From Zootoca vivipara (lineage: Eukaryota): a stretch of DNA of 64,000 nucleotides. The notes beneath the pieces were generated by a model that saw only the letters and a program-made list of their open reading frames with translations, searched no databases and was not told where the DNA came from. Where the stretch lies: NCBI RefSeq assembly GCF_963506605.1, contig NC_083288.1:29698001-29762000 (forward strand). The letters run 5' to 3'. Of this stretch, positions 461 to 42,436 are shown in pieces. Position 1 is the stretch's first letter, and every line of letters starts with the position of its first letter. Both the position numbers and the translations under genes were made by a program.

Positions 461-524
461 GATACCACTGAAGAAGCCCAATACTGGGCGAAACAGGTCC
501 TAAACGCCGGCAACCTGTCTGTTG
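461..524 (+). ncRNA. Type I hammerhead ribozyme motif (canonical core)
   Basis: CTGAAGA (468-474), A, stem II GCCCA-atac-TGGGC (476-489), GAAA (490-493), stem III CAGGT...ACCTG (494-498/513-517), then TC (518-519, GTC cleavage triplet). Stem I is weak (TACCA/TGTTG, one mismatch). Confidence 0.75.
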
Positions 525-1192
525 CGTCATTGCTGACCCACCCTGTATCGCATGTACTTTGTGTTCACCTTATTTCCTGTCAATACATTTAGACTTTGGA
601 TATTTCTGTGCCTTCGTGTTCTGCCTGTGTTGTATCACATTTGAACTCTGCACGTTCTTTCAGAGTCCCCAGTTAATGGAAAAACTCTTCTCCCACACCG
701 TTCAAAGTACCAAAGTGTTTATTGTCTCCAGACACAAGAGATTCCTAAACACTACTATATGTACAGTTCTTCTGGATTTTGAAGTAAAGATACATACGTA
801 CAGAGATCTGCTAACACTATCACCATGCTAGCTAACACTGCTTTGTAAAAACCTACAACCTCTTCTCCTTTCTCTCACAGATTCAGACCCTGACACCCAA
901 GCAGGACAGCAACAGGACATGCACAGCAAATCCATAATGAAAGCAAAGCCCTAGAGATTATTATACATTTGTCTATGTGTAGACATGTTTCCTGAACCAA
1001 TGGCTCAGTAAGTCATACACTGGACCTCGTTGGTGTTGCCGTGGTAACAAAGTGCACCTGGTACCCTTATCTCAGAACATTCAGACATGGGGTATTTATA
1101 CCTTAAGACAGGAGCCCAAGCACTGTGTAATTTAACCTATTGTTCATATTACACCCACAAGATGGTGTATCACATTTCTAAAGGAATTCATG

Positions 1193-3447: not shown

Positions 3448-4557
3448 ATTTATAATTTTTATTGATTTTATAACAAAATACAGAAAAGAAAACATAAAAA
3501 GAAAAAAAAATCAATCTCCATTATCCAATTCTAATTCTTAACATTATGGACTTCCCCACATCCCACTTCTTGAGTTCATCTTGATAACTAAATTTGCAGT
3601 ATTCATATATCTTAATTTTACATCACAATTTATCACTTAATCCTAATCTTAAACATTTATCCTTACTAATCATAAGCATTTGTCATCTTTTAATTCCCAT
3701 TCCTATATTACATCATTCTCTTCACTTTTATACAATTCAAAGCCATTATTCGCTACCCAAAAATATCCATAAATCCTTTTCTATATCTTCTTCTATAATC
3801 CCATTTTTAGCCTAATTCAACCCCCCTTCCCTTGGAATTGGGTCTCCAGAGATTTCAGCTAGCTCCTTAAAACTTTCCAGGTTCAGACCGTCTTTATCCA
3901 CTCCATGATCATTTAAACAATATTCTACCTTCACCCCACTCCCACTCTGTCCCACTCCAATCCTTGCTCTGTCCTCACCCCCTGCCGCTTTCCCATCTCC
4001 TTATCTTCTTTCTCCCTTTCCTTCTGTCCCCCACGTACATCCTTTCCCCCCTCTCTCACTGGGGTGACAACCTTTCTAATTTTCCCTTTTTCGGGGACTT
4101 TTGAATCGAAAACAACTCCTGTTCCCCCCCTCCCACCAGTGGAACAGTGGTCTCTCTCTCTCTCTCTCTCTCTCTTGTTCTTCTTCTTCTTCCTTTTCTT
4201 CCTGATCACCATATTTTCCAAGGTTCAAAATTACAGATTCCCTGTTCGTTTCTGATGGTTCAGCAGTCTTCTCCTCTAAAATTGATATTTTCCTGTTAGG
4301 GGTGGGCATCCCATCCTTCAAGCACATCTCCTCTTACATTTCCGAGATTTTTCCCAAGATTAAGTCCCAAAGAATATTTAACTCTTCGGAATCCAGAAAC
4401 TTCTCCACGATTTTGCTATTGTGCTCCTTTTCCGTAGCTACGACAGAGCCGGAAACAGTATTGTTGCTGTCTTAATTTTTTTATTTTCCAAGCTTAAAGG
4501 ATAAAGATCCATCCAAACTGGTTTCAACATCTATTTCTTTAATCATCCTCTTAATTA
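3448..4557 (-). mobile_element. L1-like non-LTR retroelement remnant in the presumed intron of OR locus 1
   Basis: 14-bp TSD TTATCTTCTTTCTT at 3434-3447 and 4558-4571, T-rich tail at the left end, absent from the paralogous region upstream of OR locus 3 (about 16400-16590). Confidence 0.6.
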
Positions 4558-4668
4558 TTATCTTCTTTCTTTGGAATCTATATCCCACAAAAACCACATC
4601 CAAAGCAGTATTGGATAACAAAAAATGTTTATCAGTAGAGAACTTAAACCTATGCTTTTCTTCTAGTG

Positions 4669-5706
4669 ATGAATGCAACGATTGGCAATGAATCCTCTGT
4701 CTCTGAATTTCTACTCCTGGAGTTTTCAGCTGTACGGGAACTGCAGATTCTACACTTCTTTCTGTTCCTGGTATTGTACCTGGCAATTGTATTTGGGAAT
4801 CTTCTCATCATCTCTGCTGTAGCCTTTGACCACCACCTTCACACTCCCATGTACTTCTTTCTGATGAACCTGGCCATACAGGACATAGGGGCTGTTTCAG
4901 TCACCATCCCCAAATCTATGGCCAATTCTTTCATGAATACCAGACACATATCTTATGCTGGATGCGTTGCTCAAGTTTTTTTCTTTTTCTTTTTCTTATC
5001 ATGTGATATTGCCCTTCTTACGGTTATGGCATATGATCGCTATGCTGCCATCTGCAATCCCTTACAATATGAAATGGTGATGAACACGGCAGCCTGCAAA
5101 CAAATGGTTGCTGGTGTGTGGGTTGCTGGAATTTTAAATGCAGTCATGCACACGAGTGCAATTTTTGCAACCCCTTTCTGCTCAAACATTGTCAATCAGT
5201 TTTTCTGTGAGATCCCACAGTTACTTAAACTTTCCTGCTCTAATTTATACCTTACAGAAATTGGAGTCTTGCTGGTGAGCATAACATTTGTGTTTGGTTG
5301 TTTTGTCTTCATCATTGTCACTTATGTACACATCTTTACTGTGGTTCTGAAAGTTCCTTCTCTTCAGGGAAGGAAAAAGGCTTTCTCTACTTGCATACCT
5401 CACCTTGTTGTCTTCTCCCTATTTTGTGTTACAGAATGTTTTGCTTACCTTAGGCCTCCCTCAAAAACTCCATCTAATGGGGACTTTGCAATAACTGTGA
5501 TGTATACCATTGTACCACCCATGTTCAACCCAATAATTTACAGCATAAGAAATAAAGAGATTAAAAATGCTGTATCAAAGCTCTTGGGTGTGAAGCACCC
5601 TTCTATGAATATCTTTTTCAGGTTTTTTTCTGAAAAGGTTACATTTCCCTTGGTAGGTCTAAGCATAGGGAACTGTGGAGATATCACAACCAGTTCCAGC
5701 TTCTAG
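4669..5706 (+). CDS. Olfactory receptor, class II, family 14-like (OR locus 1)
   Basis: Motifs LHTPMYFFL, MAYDRYAAICNPL, FFCEIPQLLKLSC, KAFSTCIPHL, PPMFNPIIYSIRNKE; N-glycosylation site NES; splice acceptor TTTTCTTCTAG ending at 4666. Confidence 0.95.
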   Translation: MNATIGNESSVSEFLLLEFSAVRELQILHFFLFLVLYLAIVFGNLLIISAVAFDHHLHTPMYFFLMNLAIQDIGAVSVTIPKSMANSFMNTRHISYAGCVAQVFFFFFFLSCDIALLTVMAYDRYAAICNPLQYEMVMNTAACKQMVAGVWVAGILNAVMHTSAIFATPFCSNIVNQFFCEIPQLLKLSCSNLYLTEIGVLLVSITFVFGCFVFIIVTYVHIFTVVLKVPSLQGRKKAFSTCIPHLVVFSLFCVTECFAYLRPPSKTPSNGDFAITVMYTIVPPMFNPIIYSIRNKEIKNAVSKLLGVKHPSMNIFFRFFSEKVTFPLVGLSIGNCGDITTSSSF

Positions 5707-10334: not shown

Positions 10335-10524
10335 CAAAAAAATAATAATCCTTCCAGTAGCACCTTAGAGACCAACTAGGTTTGTCATTGGTATGAGCTT
10401 TCGTGTGCATGCACACTTCTTCAGATACACTAAAACAGAAGTCACCAGACCCTTATGTGTAGTCAGAGGGTGGGGTGGGGGTGATGGGAATGGGTGATGG
10501 GCTGATAGGTGTGGTAAACCTGAA
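10335..10524 (-). mobile_element. Short Penelope-like element 3'/pLTR fragment
   Basis: Reverse complement matches 40135-40310 of the large Penelope copy. 13-bp flanking direct repeat ACAAGTTGTGATA at 10322-10334 and 10525-10537. Confidence 0.85.
10391..10428 (-). ncRNA. Minimal Penelope-type hammerhead ribozyme motif
   Basis: Reverse complement reads GTAT CTGAAGA A GTGTGCATGCACAC GAAA GC TC ATAC, identical to 40221-40258. Confidence 0.7.
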
Positions 10525-36141: not shown

Positions 36142-37880
36142 CTGCTGGATGGGGCCAGACAACACTGGGGATAGCAGTGAATGCAAATTTTACCTCTGTA
36201 AAGTAGCCTAGTTTCTACACACACTCTCACACCTCTGCATCCCCATCCAGACAAAAAAAGGAGACAGAGCTCAAGGGCATGCTCCAGCCAGGGAAAACAC
36301 TCAAAGAATGTGTGAAAGAGGGCTGGAGATGGGATTTGCTTGGTAAGGATGTGTGGCCCAGGTAGAGAGGCCTGAAGGGTTGCATTTGACCCCCAGAATT
36401 GAGGATCTAAAGGATTCCAGTAAAAAATCATCCCATCTACATTGGGGGTAATAATGCAGGATACTTAGACTGTGGCTGGTTTATTCCAGTCACAAGCTCC
36501 CATTCCTTTATAAAGTATATAGAAAAAACATTTAATCCCACTTTTCCTAGGATGGAGGCACAATAGAAAGCACTTATTCTTCCACAATGACCCCTTTCTC
36601 TCCAATGTACACATTCTTCCAACTATGTGGCTCCACTCCCACTTCTGCTAAATATAGAATTATATGCATATCTGTCATATATGCAGGTTTATAGCATCTA
36701 GACACAAATGAATGATAAAAAATAAGTGAAAATCTATGGTACCTGCAAGAAATAGGTATATAGGTAAGGTCAGTTGAATAAAACTATGTTTTTATAAGCT
36801 TATGTCTCCAAGAAGTAAAAATTAATTCAAATATTAATAAATAGATGCTTTTGTGGAGATTAAGGTATTAGGTTTTCATATGTTCGTACTAGGGAATTCA
36901 GTTCAATCATCAGTGTTCATAGGTTTTAGGTCCTCTAGGTTTCAATAGGAAATTGCAGTGCTATACACAACAATCCCCATGATTCTTCAACACCACAATT
37001 ACTATCAGCTCCAGCATGTACGGCTAGGTCATAGGGAGAATGGATGTTGTGGGAAGCCACAGATATTCACACCTGGACTAAAGATCTATATAGATGAAGT
37101 AAACATGCAATGTAAACCTACAATCAAAGGTACACATTTCTGAAACTAATTCCCATTCAATGCAGTGATATCCACTTCTGAGTAAGAACAACAACAACCT
37201 AGGACTAGACATAACTTAGGCAAGCTATCTAGGCAACTGAAACTGATACCTCAATTGGAGATTGGTTTTTGCCTAAGAATAGAGGAAAATATTGGCCAGA
37301 AACTTCCAGAATGCCATTTTGAGTTCCTTGTTTCTTATGCTATAGATGATCGGGTTCATTACTGGTGGTACCATGCAGTAGAATGAAGAAACCGCAAGGT
37401 CAAATGCTGACGGGGAGCTGGAGGTTGGTCTGAAATAGACAAAGTTACCACTTACGAAAAACAGGGAAATAACAATAAGATGAGGCAAACAGGTTGAGAA
37501 GACTTTTTGCTTCCCATGACTGGATGGGATTTTCAGGACTGCTCTGAAGATCTGAACATATCAGATCTGAAGATCTGAACAAGATCTGGAACTCTCTGCA
37601 CTGGACAACTCTATCAGGAATCACCCAGCCTGGCAGGAGTTCCACAAGGAAAAACAAACCATTTACCACTCTCAACTGGAGTTACTGAAGAACCGGAAAA
37701 ATAAAAAACTCTGCAACCTTTCCAACCTACAAGCCACTAATCAAAACAAAGATCAACAACATTGATCAAGATCAAAACAAGATCAACAACATTGTCAATC
37801 TCTCACAGCAAACACTCAGCCCAGCTGAGGAATCCGTCCTCTCACGGGGTCTATCATTCTGCCCTGCTAAATCCCCACAC

Positions 37881-40067
37881 ATGATTCAGTTCTGCGGGGA
37901 CCTGGAAGCATTTTTCCGCCGTTTACGCCTGAAGGAGTATTTTCATCACAAACAAGAACAAGACAAAGTAGAACAAACTACATCCCCACAACACAACACC
38001 TCTCAACTTACTGGGGAACAACCATCACCCTCCAAACGCATTAATGAACAGAACATCGACCACCAACCACCACCGAAAAGATGTTACACAAAAAGGGACT
38101 CCACGTGGACCCCTCCTGATGGACGCAATACCACACTAGATCTGTACATCGACTGCTTCCGCCACAGAATCCAAACGGATGTGACCAGAAAACACCATCA
38201 CTTACAACAAAATCTAAACCATGCTGAAAGGAGAGCCATAGAAAATCTCAGGAACAACCCAGACATTATAATTAAAGAGGCAGACAAGGGTGGAGCTGTC
38301 GTCATCATGAACAAAACTGATTACATCCAAGAGGCCCACAGACAACTTTCCAATACTGCCTTTTACATGAAATTGGACTCAGACCCCACACAAGCATACA
38401 AAAAAGAACTGAACAAGATTGTCAAGGAGCTACCCCTACACATCCAAGAACAGATCCTCACAAACACACCAGCGGAACCTCGACCAGGAACTTTCTACCT
38501 TCTACCTAAAATACACAAACCAGGAAATCCAGGACGCCCCATCATCTCAGGTATTGGCACCATTACAGTGGGTGTTTCCGGCTATATGGACTCTGTTCTG
38601 AAACCATATGCTATCAGTGCTCCCAGCTACGTACGTGACACCACAGATTTTCTGAGGAAAATACAATCTTTGAACAATCTTCCTAACAATACTATACTAG
38701 CCACTATGGATGTGGAATCTCTATACACCAACATCCCACACAATGATGGTTTACAAGCCATAAGGAACACCATTTCAGATAAAACCACAGCGGACTTTGC
38801 TACCAAACTCTGCCACTTTGTCCTTACCCACAACCACTTCAAATTTGGTGATGACCTGTTCCTCCAGATCAGCGGCACAGCCATGGGCACCCGCATGGCC
38901 CCACAGTATGCCAACATCTTCATGGCAGACTTAGAACATCGTTTCCTAGACTCCTACCCACTCAAACCTCTCTTGTACCTACGATACATTGACGATATCT
39001 TTATTATTTGGACACATGGACAACAGACCCTGGAAACCTTCCACCAGACATTCAATGACTTTCACCCCACCATCAACCTAACAATGAACCAATCTATGCA
39101 AGAAATACATTTTTTGGACATTACTATAAAAATACAGGATGGACGTATAGACACCACCTTATACAGAAAACCAACTGACCGACAAACATATCTACATGCT
39201 TCTAGCTACCATCCCAAACATACCAAACAATCCATCGTATACAGCCAGGCCCTACGTTACAACCGTATCTGTTCCAACTCTACAGACAGAGAATCTCACC
39301 TAAGAGATCTACAGCAAACCTTTTTAGAACTAAAATATCCACCTGATGAAGTTAAACAACAGATCAACAGAGCCAGACTGATACCTAGGGAGAACCTGCT
39401 GCAAGACAGACCCAAAAAAGAAAATAACAGAACACCACTAGTCATCACATACAGCTCCCAAGTTAAAACAGTACAACGCATCATCAGAGATCTACAGCCT
39501 CTCCTGGACAATGACAGCTCCCTTTCTCAAGCTCTGGGAGGAAGACCTTTCATTGCCTACAGACAGCCACCCAATCTTAAACAACTCCTCACCCACAATA
39601 ATACAACCACCAGACTTAACATGGACACTGGTACCAGAGCCTGCAATAAACCCAGATGCCAACTTTGCTGCCACATACACCCGGACAACATCATTACTGG
39701 CCCCAACAACATCCAACATACCATCTCAGGACTATTTAATTGCTCATCTTCTAACATTGTGTATGCCATCAAATGCCAACGGTGCCCTTCAGCTCTCTAC
39801 ATTGGACAAACAGGCCAAACCCTACGCCAAAGGATAAATGGACATAAATCTGACATCAGGAACCATAAGACTGAAAAACCAGTAGGAGAACACTTCAATC
39901 TCCCAGGACATTCTATACAAGATCTCAAAGCAGCTGTTTTATTACAGAGAAATTTCAGGAACAGACTGGAAAGGGAAGTTGCTGAATTGGAAATCATTAC
40001 CAAGCTTAAAACCATGGAAGCACCTGGGATGAATAGAGATATCGGATTCTTATCTCATTATGCATGA
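37881..40067 (+). CDS. Penelope-like reverse transcriptase with GIY-YIG endonuclease (728 aa open)
   Basis: ADKGGAVV, YLLPKIHK, MDVESLYTNI, GTAMG, YLRYIDDIF, Cys linker CNKPRCQLC, VYAIKC...LYIGQT, HFNLPGH. Confidence 0.93.
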   Translation: MIQFCGDLEAFFRRLRLKEYFHHKQEQDKVEQTTSPQHNTSQLTGEQPSPSKRINEQNIDHQPPPKRCYTKRDSTWTPPDGRNTTLDLYIDCFRHRIQTDVTRKHHHLQQNLNHAERRAIENLRNNPDIIIKEADKGGAVVIMNKTDYIQEAHRQLSNTAFYMKLDSDPTQAYKKELNKIVKELPLHIQEQILTNTPAEPRPGTFYLLPKIHKPGNPGRPIISGIGTITVGVSGYMDSVLKPYAISAPSYVRDTTDFLRKIQSLNNLPNNTILATMDVESLYTNIPHNDGLQAIRNTISDKTTADFATKLCHFVLTHNHFKFGDDLFLQISGTAMGTRMAPQYANIFMADLEHRFLDSYPLKPLLYLRYIDDIFIIWTHGQQTLETFHQTFNDFHPTINLTMNQSMQEIHFLDITIKIQDGRIDTTLYRKPTDRQTYLHASSYHPKHTKQSIVYSQALRYNRICSNSTDRESHLRDLQQTFLELKYPPDEVKQQINRARLIPRENLLQDRPKKENNRTPLVITYSSQVKTVQRIIRDLQPLLDNDSSLSQALGGRPFIAYRQPPNLKQLLTHNNTTTRLNMDTGTRACNKPRCQLCCHIHPDNIITGPNNIQHTISGLFNCSSSNIVYAIKCQRCPSALYIGQTGQTLRQRINGHKSDIRNHKTEKPVGEHFNLPGHSIQDLKAAVLLQRNFRNRLEREVAELEIITKLKTMEAPGMNRDIGFLSHYA

Positions 40068-40220
40068 TCAAGCTTTCTTTAGCACCTCAGCCCAGGACTA
40101 ATTGCAGCCATCAGCAGCCATTAACACCCATCTACAGGTTTACCACTCCCATCAGCCCATCTCCCATTCCCACCCACCACCCTCTGTATATATATAGGGT
40201 CTGACACTTCTGTTTCTAGT

Positions 40221-40258
40221 GTATCTGAAGAAGTGTGCATGCACACGAAAGCTCATAC
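40221..40258 (+). ncRNA. Minimal Penelope-type hammerhead ribozyme motif
   Basis: Stem I GTAT/ATAC, CTGAAGA, stem II GTGTG-catg-CACAC, GAAA, palindromic AGCT in place of helix III, TC. Confidence 0.72.
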
Positions 40259-42436
40259 CAAAATATAAACTTAGTTGGTCTTTAAGGTGCTACTGAAGGA
40301 ATTTTCTTATTTTGCTTCGACTCAGACCAACACGGCTACCTACCTGTAATAAGAAAAGGCAATTAGAGCAAAGTAGATGAAGCCTAAACAAGCTCCAAAA
40401 GTTAGAACCCAAATCACAGTAATATCTGAGTCAGGGCAAGAGTTCTTCAGCAGTTGTGGGATTTCACAGAAAAACTGATTGATAACATTAGAACAGAACT
40501 CAATTTTGAATGTTGTTCCAGTGTACATTGTTGCATAGAAAAGTCCCCCAATCCATGCACTGGTTGCCATCTGAATGCAGGCTTTCTTGTTCATGACAGT
40601 CTCATAATGCAGTGGATTGCAGATGGCAACATAGCGATCATATGCCATAACACCAAGGAGGATATAATGAGACAATATGAAGAAAACAAGGAAGAATACT
40701 TGACAGGCACATCCAGAGTAAGAGATGGTTTGGGTCTTCATCAAGGAATTTGCAATGGACTTGGGAACTGTAACCGATATGGAGCCAATGTCTTGCAATG
40801 ACAGGTTGGCCAGAAAGAAGTACATGGGTGTATGAAGCTGATGGCTGTAGAAGATGACTGTGATGATCATGATATTTTCTGTGAGGGCCACCAAATATAT
40901 TATGATAAAAAGGTTGATGTGAAATACCTGCACCTCCCGAATATCAGGAAAGCCATGTAGTAGGAATCCACTTACTCTTGACTGGTTCATCATTGTGTCT
41001 CAGACTTTGATGCCTAGGAAAAGAAAGCTACCCACCCCTTTCTTCTCTTTCAGTTGTATCGGGAAATCCTTCTCTCTGTACTGAATGTGGTGAAGGGTGG
41101 GAATGTATAGCAATCGGCTTTATCGATGTCTCACTTCTAATTATACCCAGAAGGTTTAATTCTCATGAGTCTTCTACATACAGCTCAGCAGATGTGGAGC
41201 AGATGTGTACATATTTGAGGGTTGAAATGCAGCTATAATGACTATGATACAAAGTTCTGCTTTGGCTTATGAAAGGGGCTTGCACGAGAGTGGGTTGTTT
41301 ATGTTCCTAAATCAGTTTTCTATATGGCATAACCCTGTGGGTTGTTGGCTGCTGCTATTTACATTAACACATCTAGGACTGCAGTCCTATACAAAAATAC
41401 ATGGGATGAAGTCCTTTGGAACTCAATGTGACTCAATTCTAAGAAGACATGTATAGGGTTATGCTGTAAAATCCCCTTCTTCTACTCATGAAATTCGGTT
41501 TCTTTGTTGCCTAACCCCTGCCATGAAGTTCTAAATCAAAGTAAGTATTAACAGATCAATATTAGCAGCTGAATCCCACAACACTTCCATGTTGTATATG
41601 ATTGAAGGCTAGCATCCAAGGAACAATGTAGATTGATGTTTTATGCTCCATTGTGAGGGTTGTAGACCTACTTGCTGCATTAAAGCTGTGTCCATCTTTT
41701 TAATATAGCACAGAATGACGTCTAAGAGAGGATTCCAATTTCTACTTGTTCAATTTGCAGTTTTTGTAACCATTTTTTGGAATTATGAAAAACATTAATA
41801 AAAATCTCATTACACAGAAGTAATCAATCAAATTTTCCTTGGATTACTACTGATTCAGCAGATCCCACAGCTGCATTCACAATCTAACCCTCCAAATCAG
41901 GCCTCCAAACAGCCCATAAAAGCAACCAGCCTCAATTCAAAAGTCTTCTTCCATTTAGCTCTGTAATTATTGTTGGTTTAGTTATTCTCTTTATGTATAT
42001 CTTTCCATGAAAAGGCATAAAGAAAGGCATGCAAAGACTGTAGGATGTGCTTTTAATTAAAGTAGAGAGCAAGCTTTGTATCAGCATGTCGAGGGCTGGG
42101 ATGTTGGAACCAAATGAAAGCATATTATGGCTTCTTCTACCAGCCAGAATAGCAAGGCGCATTGGGAATCTAAACCCTCTGCCTCTGAGAATGTGTATAC
42201 TTTGTCTCTTCTTTTCTACACTTTCTACATCACAGTTCATCAACTCTTTTTAAGAATCAGTCCTGTGATAATCTTTTCTCAGAGACCAAGACTTGCTTAG
42301 TCATTTATCACCTCGTGTTTCTTCAGTGTCCTCATTTGGTTGCATGGTAGTGGGACCCACAGTTTTATGCTCACCCCAGACAGCAAAATGTCTTGGGCCA
42401 GCCCTGGGAACTACCTGAAACCAATCATTGATAGTA

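Follow-up and report, generated by a model that had tools for sequence, protein, structure and literature searches.

The 64,000-nucleotide stretch of Zootoca vivipara DNA analyzed here (hereafter the window) contains on its forward strand a hammerhead motif (468-519) that is almost certainly the pLTR hammerhead of a Penelope-like element (PLE). Comparison between families of the element indicates that the motif is under selection. The copy in the window, in contrast, is a dead insertion and has no role for the host. The motif combines a long helix III with a self-complementary hexamer in loop III, which is a candidate signal for dimerisation of the RNA.

The hammerhead motif and its host element

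All of the core nucleotides reported by a first-pass annotation of the window are in the sequence, namely CUGAAGA (468-474), GAA (490-492) and a GUC ending at C519. Position 9 is separated from position 10.1 by an additional A (475), and the core from C3 to A9 together with this A occupies 468-475. Helix I has a 5' strand of 2 bp (466-467, partner 520-521), as assigned from the sequence and from pairing across the family representatives. The 5-bp helix II that had been claimed, GCCCA/UGGGC (476-480/485-489), is present and includes the G10.1-C11.1 pair; with loop II it covers 476-489, and its pair probability in the predicted fold is 0.99. The remaining part (490-519) consists of GAA, helix III (493-498/513-518), a 14-nt loop III and C17 (519), as judged from sequence, fold and covariation. 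Helix III was found where it had been placed, with a length of 6 bp instead of 5 bp when the A15.1-U16.1 pair is counted. Loop III contains the self-complementary hexamer GCCGGC (506-511), a predicted dimerisation (kissing) site, and cleavage is predicted between 519 and 520. A further proposed helix between GAUAC (461-465) and GUAUC (545-549) is part of the predicted minimum-energy fold. The sister families, however, have other letters upstream, and their comparison gave no sign that this distal helix is conserved.

The motif has the CUGANGA/GAA/UH core, the three helices and the open end in helix I of a type I hammerhead. The annotation had called it canonical. Canonical type I hammerheads of animals, as in retrozymes or Schistosoma, with a helix I of approximately 6 bp, a contact between loops I and II and no insertion, do not fit this motif, since A475 is inserted between A9 and G10.1, helix I is only 2 bp and Rfam gave no match. 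An additional nucleotide separating position 9 from 10.1 is a feature that the text of PMC4209133 gives for PLE hammerheads. The extra A at 475 therefore marks the motif as a Penelope-type rather than a canonical hammerhead.

Taken alone in the window, the motif is unconvincing; the evidence for its reality comes from the genome. No Rfam hammerhead model matched the whole window at E<=1 or positions 300-800 at E<=10, an outcome that the annotation had counted against the motif. Within the window, a loose core pattern did not exceed chance, with 11 matches where shuffles gave 7.2 on average, and the fold z-score of the motif was weak (-0.7 to -1.7). In the genome, however, the exact core with helix II gave 20 matches and its reversed control 0, and a pattern for the general shape gave 303 matches against 3 in controls. 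The search with positions 400-700 listed 52 DNA matches, the best 30 of which showed 89-100% identity. The related copies anticipated by the annotation thus exist, and helix III covaries across families, as also anticipated. The motif is real despite the absent Rfam match, and we therefore consider Rfam to be the wrong test here.

The annotation stated that no ORF is attached to the motif. This holds inside the window. Upstream of it, a decayed RT-thumb, a CxxCxxC linker and a GIY-YIG domain were found on the same strand, approximately 1.1-2.1 kb before the window start (locus L031, 6882-7917), and this region ends approximately 1.5 kb upstream of the core. Inverted pLTR pieces precede it at the element's 5' end, and the same order was observed in other copies. 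The copy to which the window motif belongs is truncated on its 5' side and contains stops. An A+T-rich foreign stretch (L031, 6185-6752) interrupts its inverted 5' pLTR copy exactly at the core, removing C3-U4. Several loci carry two copies of the family in opposite orientation, separated by a few hundred bases. Near another family copy, an endogenous retrovirus is represented by integrase-like and envelope-like frames (L042, 4860-7106).

A protein search revealed a young sister family, the protein of which is 86-87% identical, with open 748-aa frames and 3,781-bp tandems carrying one hammerhead per unit. The same search of the genome found more distant families at 37-48% identity. RVT_1 and GIY-YIG of Pfam scored above the cut-off in the sister family, and GIY-YIG in the window family. 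The RT followed by GIY-YIG of an EN+ PLE, the pLTRs, the partial tandem or inverted structure and the optional tail were all found. A link between the hammerhead and PLE ORFs was seen for the window family, its sister and most of the distant families, and was not seen in the loci fetched for four families. The CX2-5CxxC linker was present in 19 of the 25 pieces examined, most of the rest being short; it is described as common to Neptune and Nematis and is not diagnostic alone. The Neptune-1_Ac row in the supplement of PMC8557442 resembles the window family by eye around the linker and the GIY-YIG domain. From the linker and this by-eye likeness, the element is putatively placed in Neptune. The tree of pieces showed only about five deep lineages, the branching order of which it does not resolve.

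The sister family has, in addition, an ORF1 of 252 aa from stop to stop without a Pfam match (L049, L051, L052, L053). The overlap between ORF1 and the 748-aa RT/GIY-YIG frame is 33 nt long and in the -1 frame, and the same frame relation was observed in a family of approximately 45% identity (L058). A canonical slippery heptamer is present in the ORF1/ORF2 overlap of the L058 family and absent from that of the L051 family. Relatives of ORF1 were found in toad and frog records, one of which continues in frame into the RT N-terminus.

According to the annotation, the motif belonged to a second family of ribozyme-bearing retroelements, separate from the Penelope at 37.6 kb. This is borne out: the latter (37.7-40.3 kb) shows 28% amino-acid identity to the young sister family and lies on a long separate branch, far from the window family in the tree. 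For comparison, it comprises an RT and GIY-YIG frame of a separate lineage (37689-40067, plus strand) and a minimal hammerhead with a loop-less palindromic helix III (40225-40254, plus strand), a second copy of which is located at 10395-10424 on the minus strand. Its frame is open over 792 aa, with no methionine ahead of the conserved N-terminal motif and with a CxxxxCxxC linker. This other element (37689-40254) interrupts an olfactory receptor (OR) gene on the opposite strand (40340-40999), and an OR cluster, some of whose genes are split and several of which are intact, spans 4648-60162. A further OR-like frame is located in L031 upstream of the window (4213-5091). The hammerhead-bearing element therefore sits between OR genes and not, as had been supposed, before the first of them; the nearby OR is incidental.

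The following anatomy is given in forward-strand coordinates of the window. Positions 1-156 are the 3' part of an unrelated high-copy repeat of approximately 1 kb, recognized from genome matches and inserted in the first pLTR intron of the window copy. This repeat begins approximately 840 bases before the window, showed 89-99% identity over query 2-996 in the 41 matches listed of 3070 candidates, and has ends elsewhere that differ from PLE ends. It occurs also at L001 263-1257 and holds an internal array of hairpin-like units of approximately 29 bases. An intron-like segment, GTAAGT...TAG (203-290), duplicates the first pLTR intron, with positions 202-273 repeating the stretch 907-836 bases before the window, and is absent from intronless copies. 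The pLTR exon that follows (291-355) is kept in those copies, where it is joined directly to 451/456. The last pLTR intron (356-451) is GTAAGT...ACAG in other copies, and its acceptor is AT in the window copy. The downstream sequence had been read as a pLTR end, which was confirmed: the 3' part of the pLTR covers 520-656 and the family repeat extends to 656. The window copy stops inside an optional tail of 30-40 bases, which other copies and the element's own inverted 5' partner carry further. The 3' ends of the copies fall into two groups approximately 40 bases apart, which is the known tail.

Precise GT-AG loss in genomic copies identifies the pLTR introns as spliceosomal. Among 30 rows, the last intron was retained in 11, precisely absent in 16, and other or truncated in 3; the first intron was also gone in 12 of the 16 rows without the last one. 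GT..AG joints were seen at matching places in RNA reads of the sister family, with 3 reads each, which transcribed intronless copies could yield as well. The intronless copies (L009-L026, L048; compared with the intron-retaining L001-L007, L011, L013, L025, L027) start near one point approximately 960 bases before the window's frame, often as short inverted pairs. They look as one would expect if a spliced RNA initiated in the pLTR had been copied into cDNA. That copies with introns and copies precisely without them exist side by side in one genome bears on why PLEs keep introns. In another family (L054-L056, L064, L068), a polypyrimidine tract and CAG abut C3, so that splicing would exchange the 5' strand in helix I for another, as described for D. 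virilis. The family has a near-palindromic helix III with a GGCC loop.

Conservation of the helices and of loop III

Approximately 16 families, grouped by eye, were distinguished among the loci examined. Of the 303 general-shape matches 100 were listed; 30 were taken as loci, and 20 more were chosen for distinct sequences. The 16 family representatives were filtered for at least 4 pairs in helix III. The core is partly imposed by the search pattern, and its invariance across distant families is not independent evidence. Between the window family and its sister, identity was 87% over C3-C17, compared with 59-73% in the neighbouring pLTR segments, 78% in the ORF and a shuffled baseline of 61%.

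Before filtering, all of the first 30 matches formed pairs 3 and 4 of helix III, and 28 of them formed pair 6; the pattern imposes none of these pairs. Pairs 3 and 4 each occurred as four pair types over the 16 representatives. Pairing ends after pair 6, pair 7 being formed in 5 of 16, and helix III is 6-7 bp in most families. In helix I, the 2.1-1.1 pair was formed in 15 of the 16 representatives with four pair types and the 2.2-1.2 pair in 9, while pairs 3-5 were formed in 5, 4 and 4, which is chance level. These facts suggest that a weak helix I is the normal state of the group. It had been regarded as damage in need of repair; instead, the entire group has 1-2 bp, and its first pair shows compensatory changes.

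Helix II is only 1-2 bp in the families L260-L274 and L245-L259. In the former, loop II UUAACC could pair with a downstream GGUUAA. Over 15 families, pairing of loop II with 20-base flanks was not above shuffles (Fisher 0.28 and 0.67); one family alone reached p=0.01, and a 6-bp option noted by eye in the L057 family was not scored significant.

A G+C-rich Watson-Crick hexamer palindrome was found in loop III of 22 of the 30 unfiltered matches, against 0.8 expected; P values from these matches overstate independence, since many are copies of one young family and the families are related. Loop III is self-complementary over at least 6 bases in 11 of the 16 families (in one of them only when G-U pairs are counted), over 4 bases in 3 and not at all in 2. 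The L057 family and L105/L106 have no Watson-Crick palindrome. The deep lineages differ in the palindrome (GCCGGC, CCCGGG/UCCGGA, UGGCCA and GGCC), and therefore self-complementarity rather than a fixed sequence appears to be kept. The bases flanking CCGG covary (G-C, C-G, U-A), GGCC replaces CCGG in two lineages, and the self-pairing extends to 8-10 bases in some families. The self-pairing energy of loop III was better than that of shuffles (Fisher 1e-5 over 14 families, which are not independent). A pseudoknot of loop III with 150-base flanks was unsupported (Fisher 0.89 and 0.52). Of 30 dead copies from the window family, 20 retain an intact hexamer, and in 8 it is CpG-decayed. A metagenome scan for the CCGG-loop shape gave 2 of at least 120 loci that pass loose helix tests, neither of them convincing. 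Taken together, the comparisons suggest that self-complementarity of loop III has probably been selected.

In the predicted folds helix I was never formed (pair probability 0.000), and helix III was displaced by other pairings in 4 of the 6 contexts folded. An extended homodimer was predicted to be 8-13 kcal/mol more stable than two hairpins.

RNA reads from three runs, approximately 6% of each, gave 33, 35 and 24 matches to a single sister-family unit and 5, 0 and 15 to positions 202-700 of the window. Six reads cross the tandem junction of the sister family. Among these few reads, no pile-up of ends was listed at the cleavage site. Some reads cross the site uncut; reads over the hammerhead are mostly in an antisense-like orientation, and the uncut site-crossing reads are probably antisense.

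Possible function and alternative explanations

On the basis of these sequence features, we lean slightly towards a conditional ribozyme in a Neptune-type pLTR, in which the dimer signal would be kept as a kissing loop. Two hammerheads, either 3,781 nt apart in a tandem or on two RNAs, would kiss through the loop III hexamer. The kissing loops may then exchange strands to give an extended duplex, in which helix III would be formed between molecules; this corresponds to the dimeric geometry described as a proposal for minimal Penelope hammerheads. Cleavage after C519 would be conditional, occurring in the dimer or with protein help, and assistance by a protein is probable, as reported in PMC11167929 for the anole element. 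As the full-length pLTR copies that were examined continue across the cleavage site and a helix I of 2 bp is unstable, cleavage would be slow or late, and uncut RNA would be reverse-transcribed. We would give dimerisation a modest preference as the purpose of the loop III palindrome.

A bolder form of this proposal, which we consider unlikely, is that a vertebrate branch of Neptune turned the third arm into a retrovirus-like dimerisation signal that unites kissing loop, dimer-only ribozyme and template pairing. The family-specific kissing loop would pair two element RNAs and would switch the ribozyme on only then, and the paired templates would allow jumps that yield partial-tandem and inverted insertions. 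The dimerisation initiation site (DIS) of HIV-1 is a hairpin loop with a G+C-rich self-complementary hexamer flanked by purines, which passes from a kissing complex to an extended duplex. The likeness is an analogy only, with no homology, and the hairpin here is one arm of a ribozyme.

Since the 6-bp helix III is stable in the monomer, a dimer is unnecessary to build the core. It is conceivable, if somewhat unlikely, that the ribozyme is competent as a monomer, like the long-helix-III type of fungi and protists, and that the palindrome is a leftover of an ancestral helix III or a contact for a protein. Such a reading would make sense of the stable helix III and the 5-6-bp helix II, and a fungal PLE hammerhead with a large helix III is described as cleaving as a monomer (PMC4209133). 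CCGG could also be inherited as sequence, and two families have no palindrome. Inheritance alone, however, fits poorly with the covariation around CCGG, the GGCC swaps, the pairing over 8-10 bases and the retention of CpG between families despite its rapid decay in dead copies (8 of 30). A helix I of only 1-2 bp also speaks against the monomer.

It seems quite improbable to us that the motif is kept mainly as a structure without catalytic activity, which would serve the element RNP as a signal for dimerisation or protein binding, with negligible cleavage in vivo. None of the 52 family matches listed begins or ends at 519/520, and the single alignment stopping at 520 is a diverged sister copy that continues. 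Since no match ends there, uncut or rejoined RNA appears to have served as template, in agreement with the account in PMC11167929. The reduction of helix II to 1-2 bp in several families would also fit a non-catalytic motif, as would two published observations: anole core mutants had no effect on insertion in vitro, according to the text of PMC11167929, and 8 of 9 Xenopus dimers are given as uncleaved in bioRxiv 10.64898/2026.07.22.740005. The catalytic core, however, is the best conserved part between the sister families, and the anole PLE hammerhead does cleave with protein according to PMC11167929. That the palindrome acts in DNA, as a promoter binding site of the pLTR with an incidental place in loop III, is highly improbable. 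Palindromes are common as DNA-binding sites, CCGGAA resembles an ETS site, and the pLTR of Drosophila Penelope is described as containing an internal promoter; the sequence of the palindrome nevertheless changes between families while self-complementarity stays, and its position is fixed relative to the RNA helix.

Comparison with known systems

The motif is close to the minimal hammerhead (min-HHR) of animal PLEs, for which a palindromic loop 3 and dimeric cleavage are a published rule in the text of PMC4209133. The motif shares with it the type I topology, the pLTR site, the extra nucleotide between 9 and 10.1, the G10.1-C11.1 pair, a short helix I, a palindromic loop 3 that would allow a dimer, and an intron that ends just upstream, as described there for D. 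virilis. It differs in helix III, which is absent or very short in min-HHRs. Among the 56 animal motifs of Cervera and De la Pena 2014 (PMC4209133), the longest helix III described is approximately 3-4 bp, with a 4-nt palindrome. Here, helix III is 6-7 bp with a loop of 13-17 nt, and the palindrome, rather than making up helix III, is contained in the loop. For helix I, mostly 3-5 bp are given there, against 1-2 bp here. The long-helix-III hammerheads of fungal and protist PLEs are likewise described with a large helix III and without a recognisable loop I-loop II contact (PMC4209133). They belong, however, to endonuclease-less telomeric elements, of which the one tested cleaves as a monomer, while the present element is an endonuclease-bearing one of a vertebrate; the text of that paper mentions no loop palindrome for them.

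The host element shares with the Neptune clade, as described in PMC8557442, the RT, the CX2-5CxxC linker, the C-terminal GIY-YIG, partial tandems, the inverted 5' pLTR and the tail of 30-40 bases. Intact copies here differ from the Neptune elements described by Craig et al. 2021 (PMC8557442) in an upstream ORF1 that overlaps the RT frame and in two pLTR introns; Figure 1 of that paper shows, clade by clade, hammerheads and an ORF1 that is optional. Poseidon PAc of Anolis carolinensis (Frangieh et al. 2024, PMC11167929) likewise has a pLTR hammerhead, tandems, a tail and an uncut RNA template. The hammerhead of this lizard element is reported to require the element protein to cleave, with uncut RNA as the main template. 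PAc belongs to another clade and its ORF is described as beginning inside the hammerhead, whereas ORF1 here begins approximately 340 nt downstream of C3.

The annotation had also considered retrozymes as a source. Non-LTR retrozymes have a type I hammerhead in a repeat and dimeric cleavage, as described in PMC7229834 and bioRxiv 10.64898/2026.07.22.740005. The present motif, however, belongs to a coding element, and it neither forms part of a short head-to-tail hammerhead array nor has a 6-bp helix I and loop contacts. The copies are dispersed, in inverted pairs or joined to PLE ORFs, and the tandem units of the sister family, which contain ORFs, repeat every 3,781 bp. A retrozyme origin was rejected on these grounds.

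Rfam misses the variant, and descriptors built on a minimal helix III would miss it too, so that reptile and amphibian genomes may contain overlooked examples. The shape with a long helix III and a palindromic loop was not found in the texts searched; the PLE hammerhead variants of Lunse, Weinberg and Breaker from 2016/17 may include related ones. We provisionally regard the variant of the PLE hammerhead with a long helix III and a loop palindrome as new. It bears on the role of PLE hammerheads, since the published motifs are described as cleaving poorly and core mutants as leaving insertion in vitro unchanged. Compensatory versions of the loop occur naturally in the genome, as does a sister family that is young, intact and arranged in tandem. 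The stable helix III and the palindromic dimer signal, which are fused in minimal hammerheads, are separated in this variant, and each can be mutated alone.
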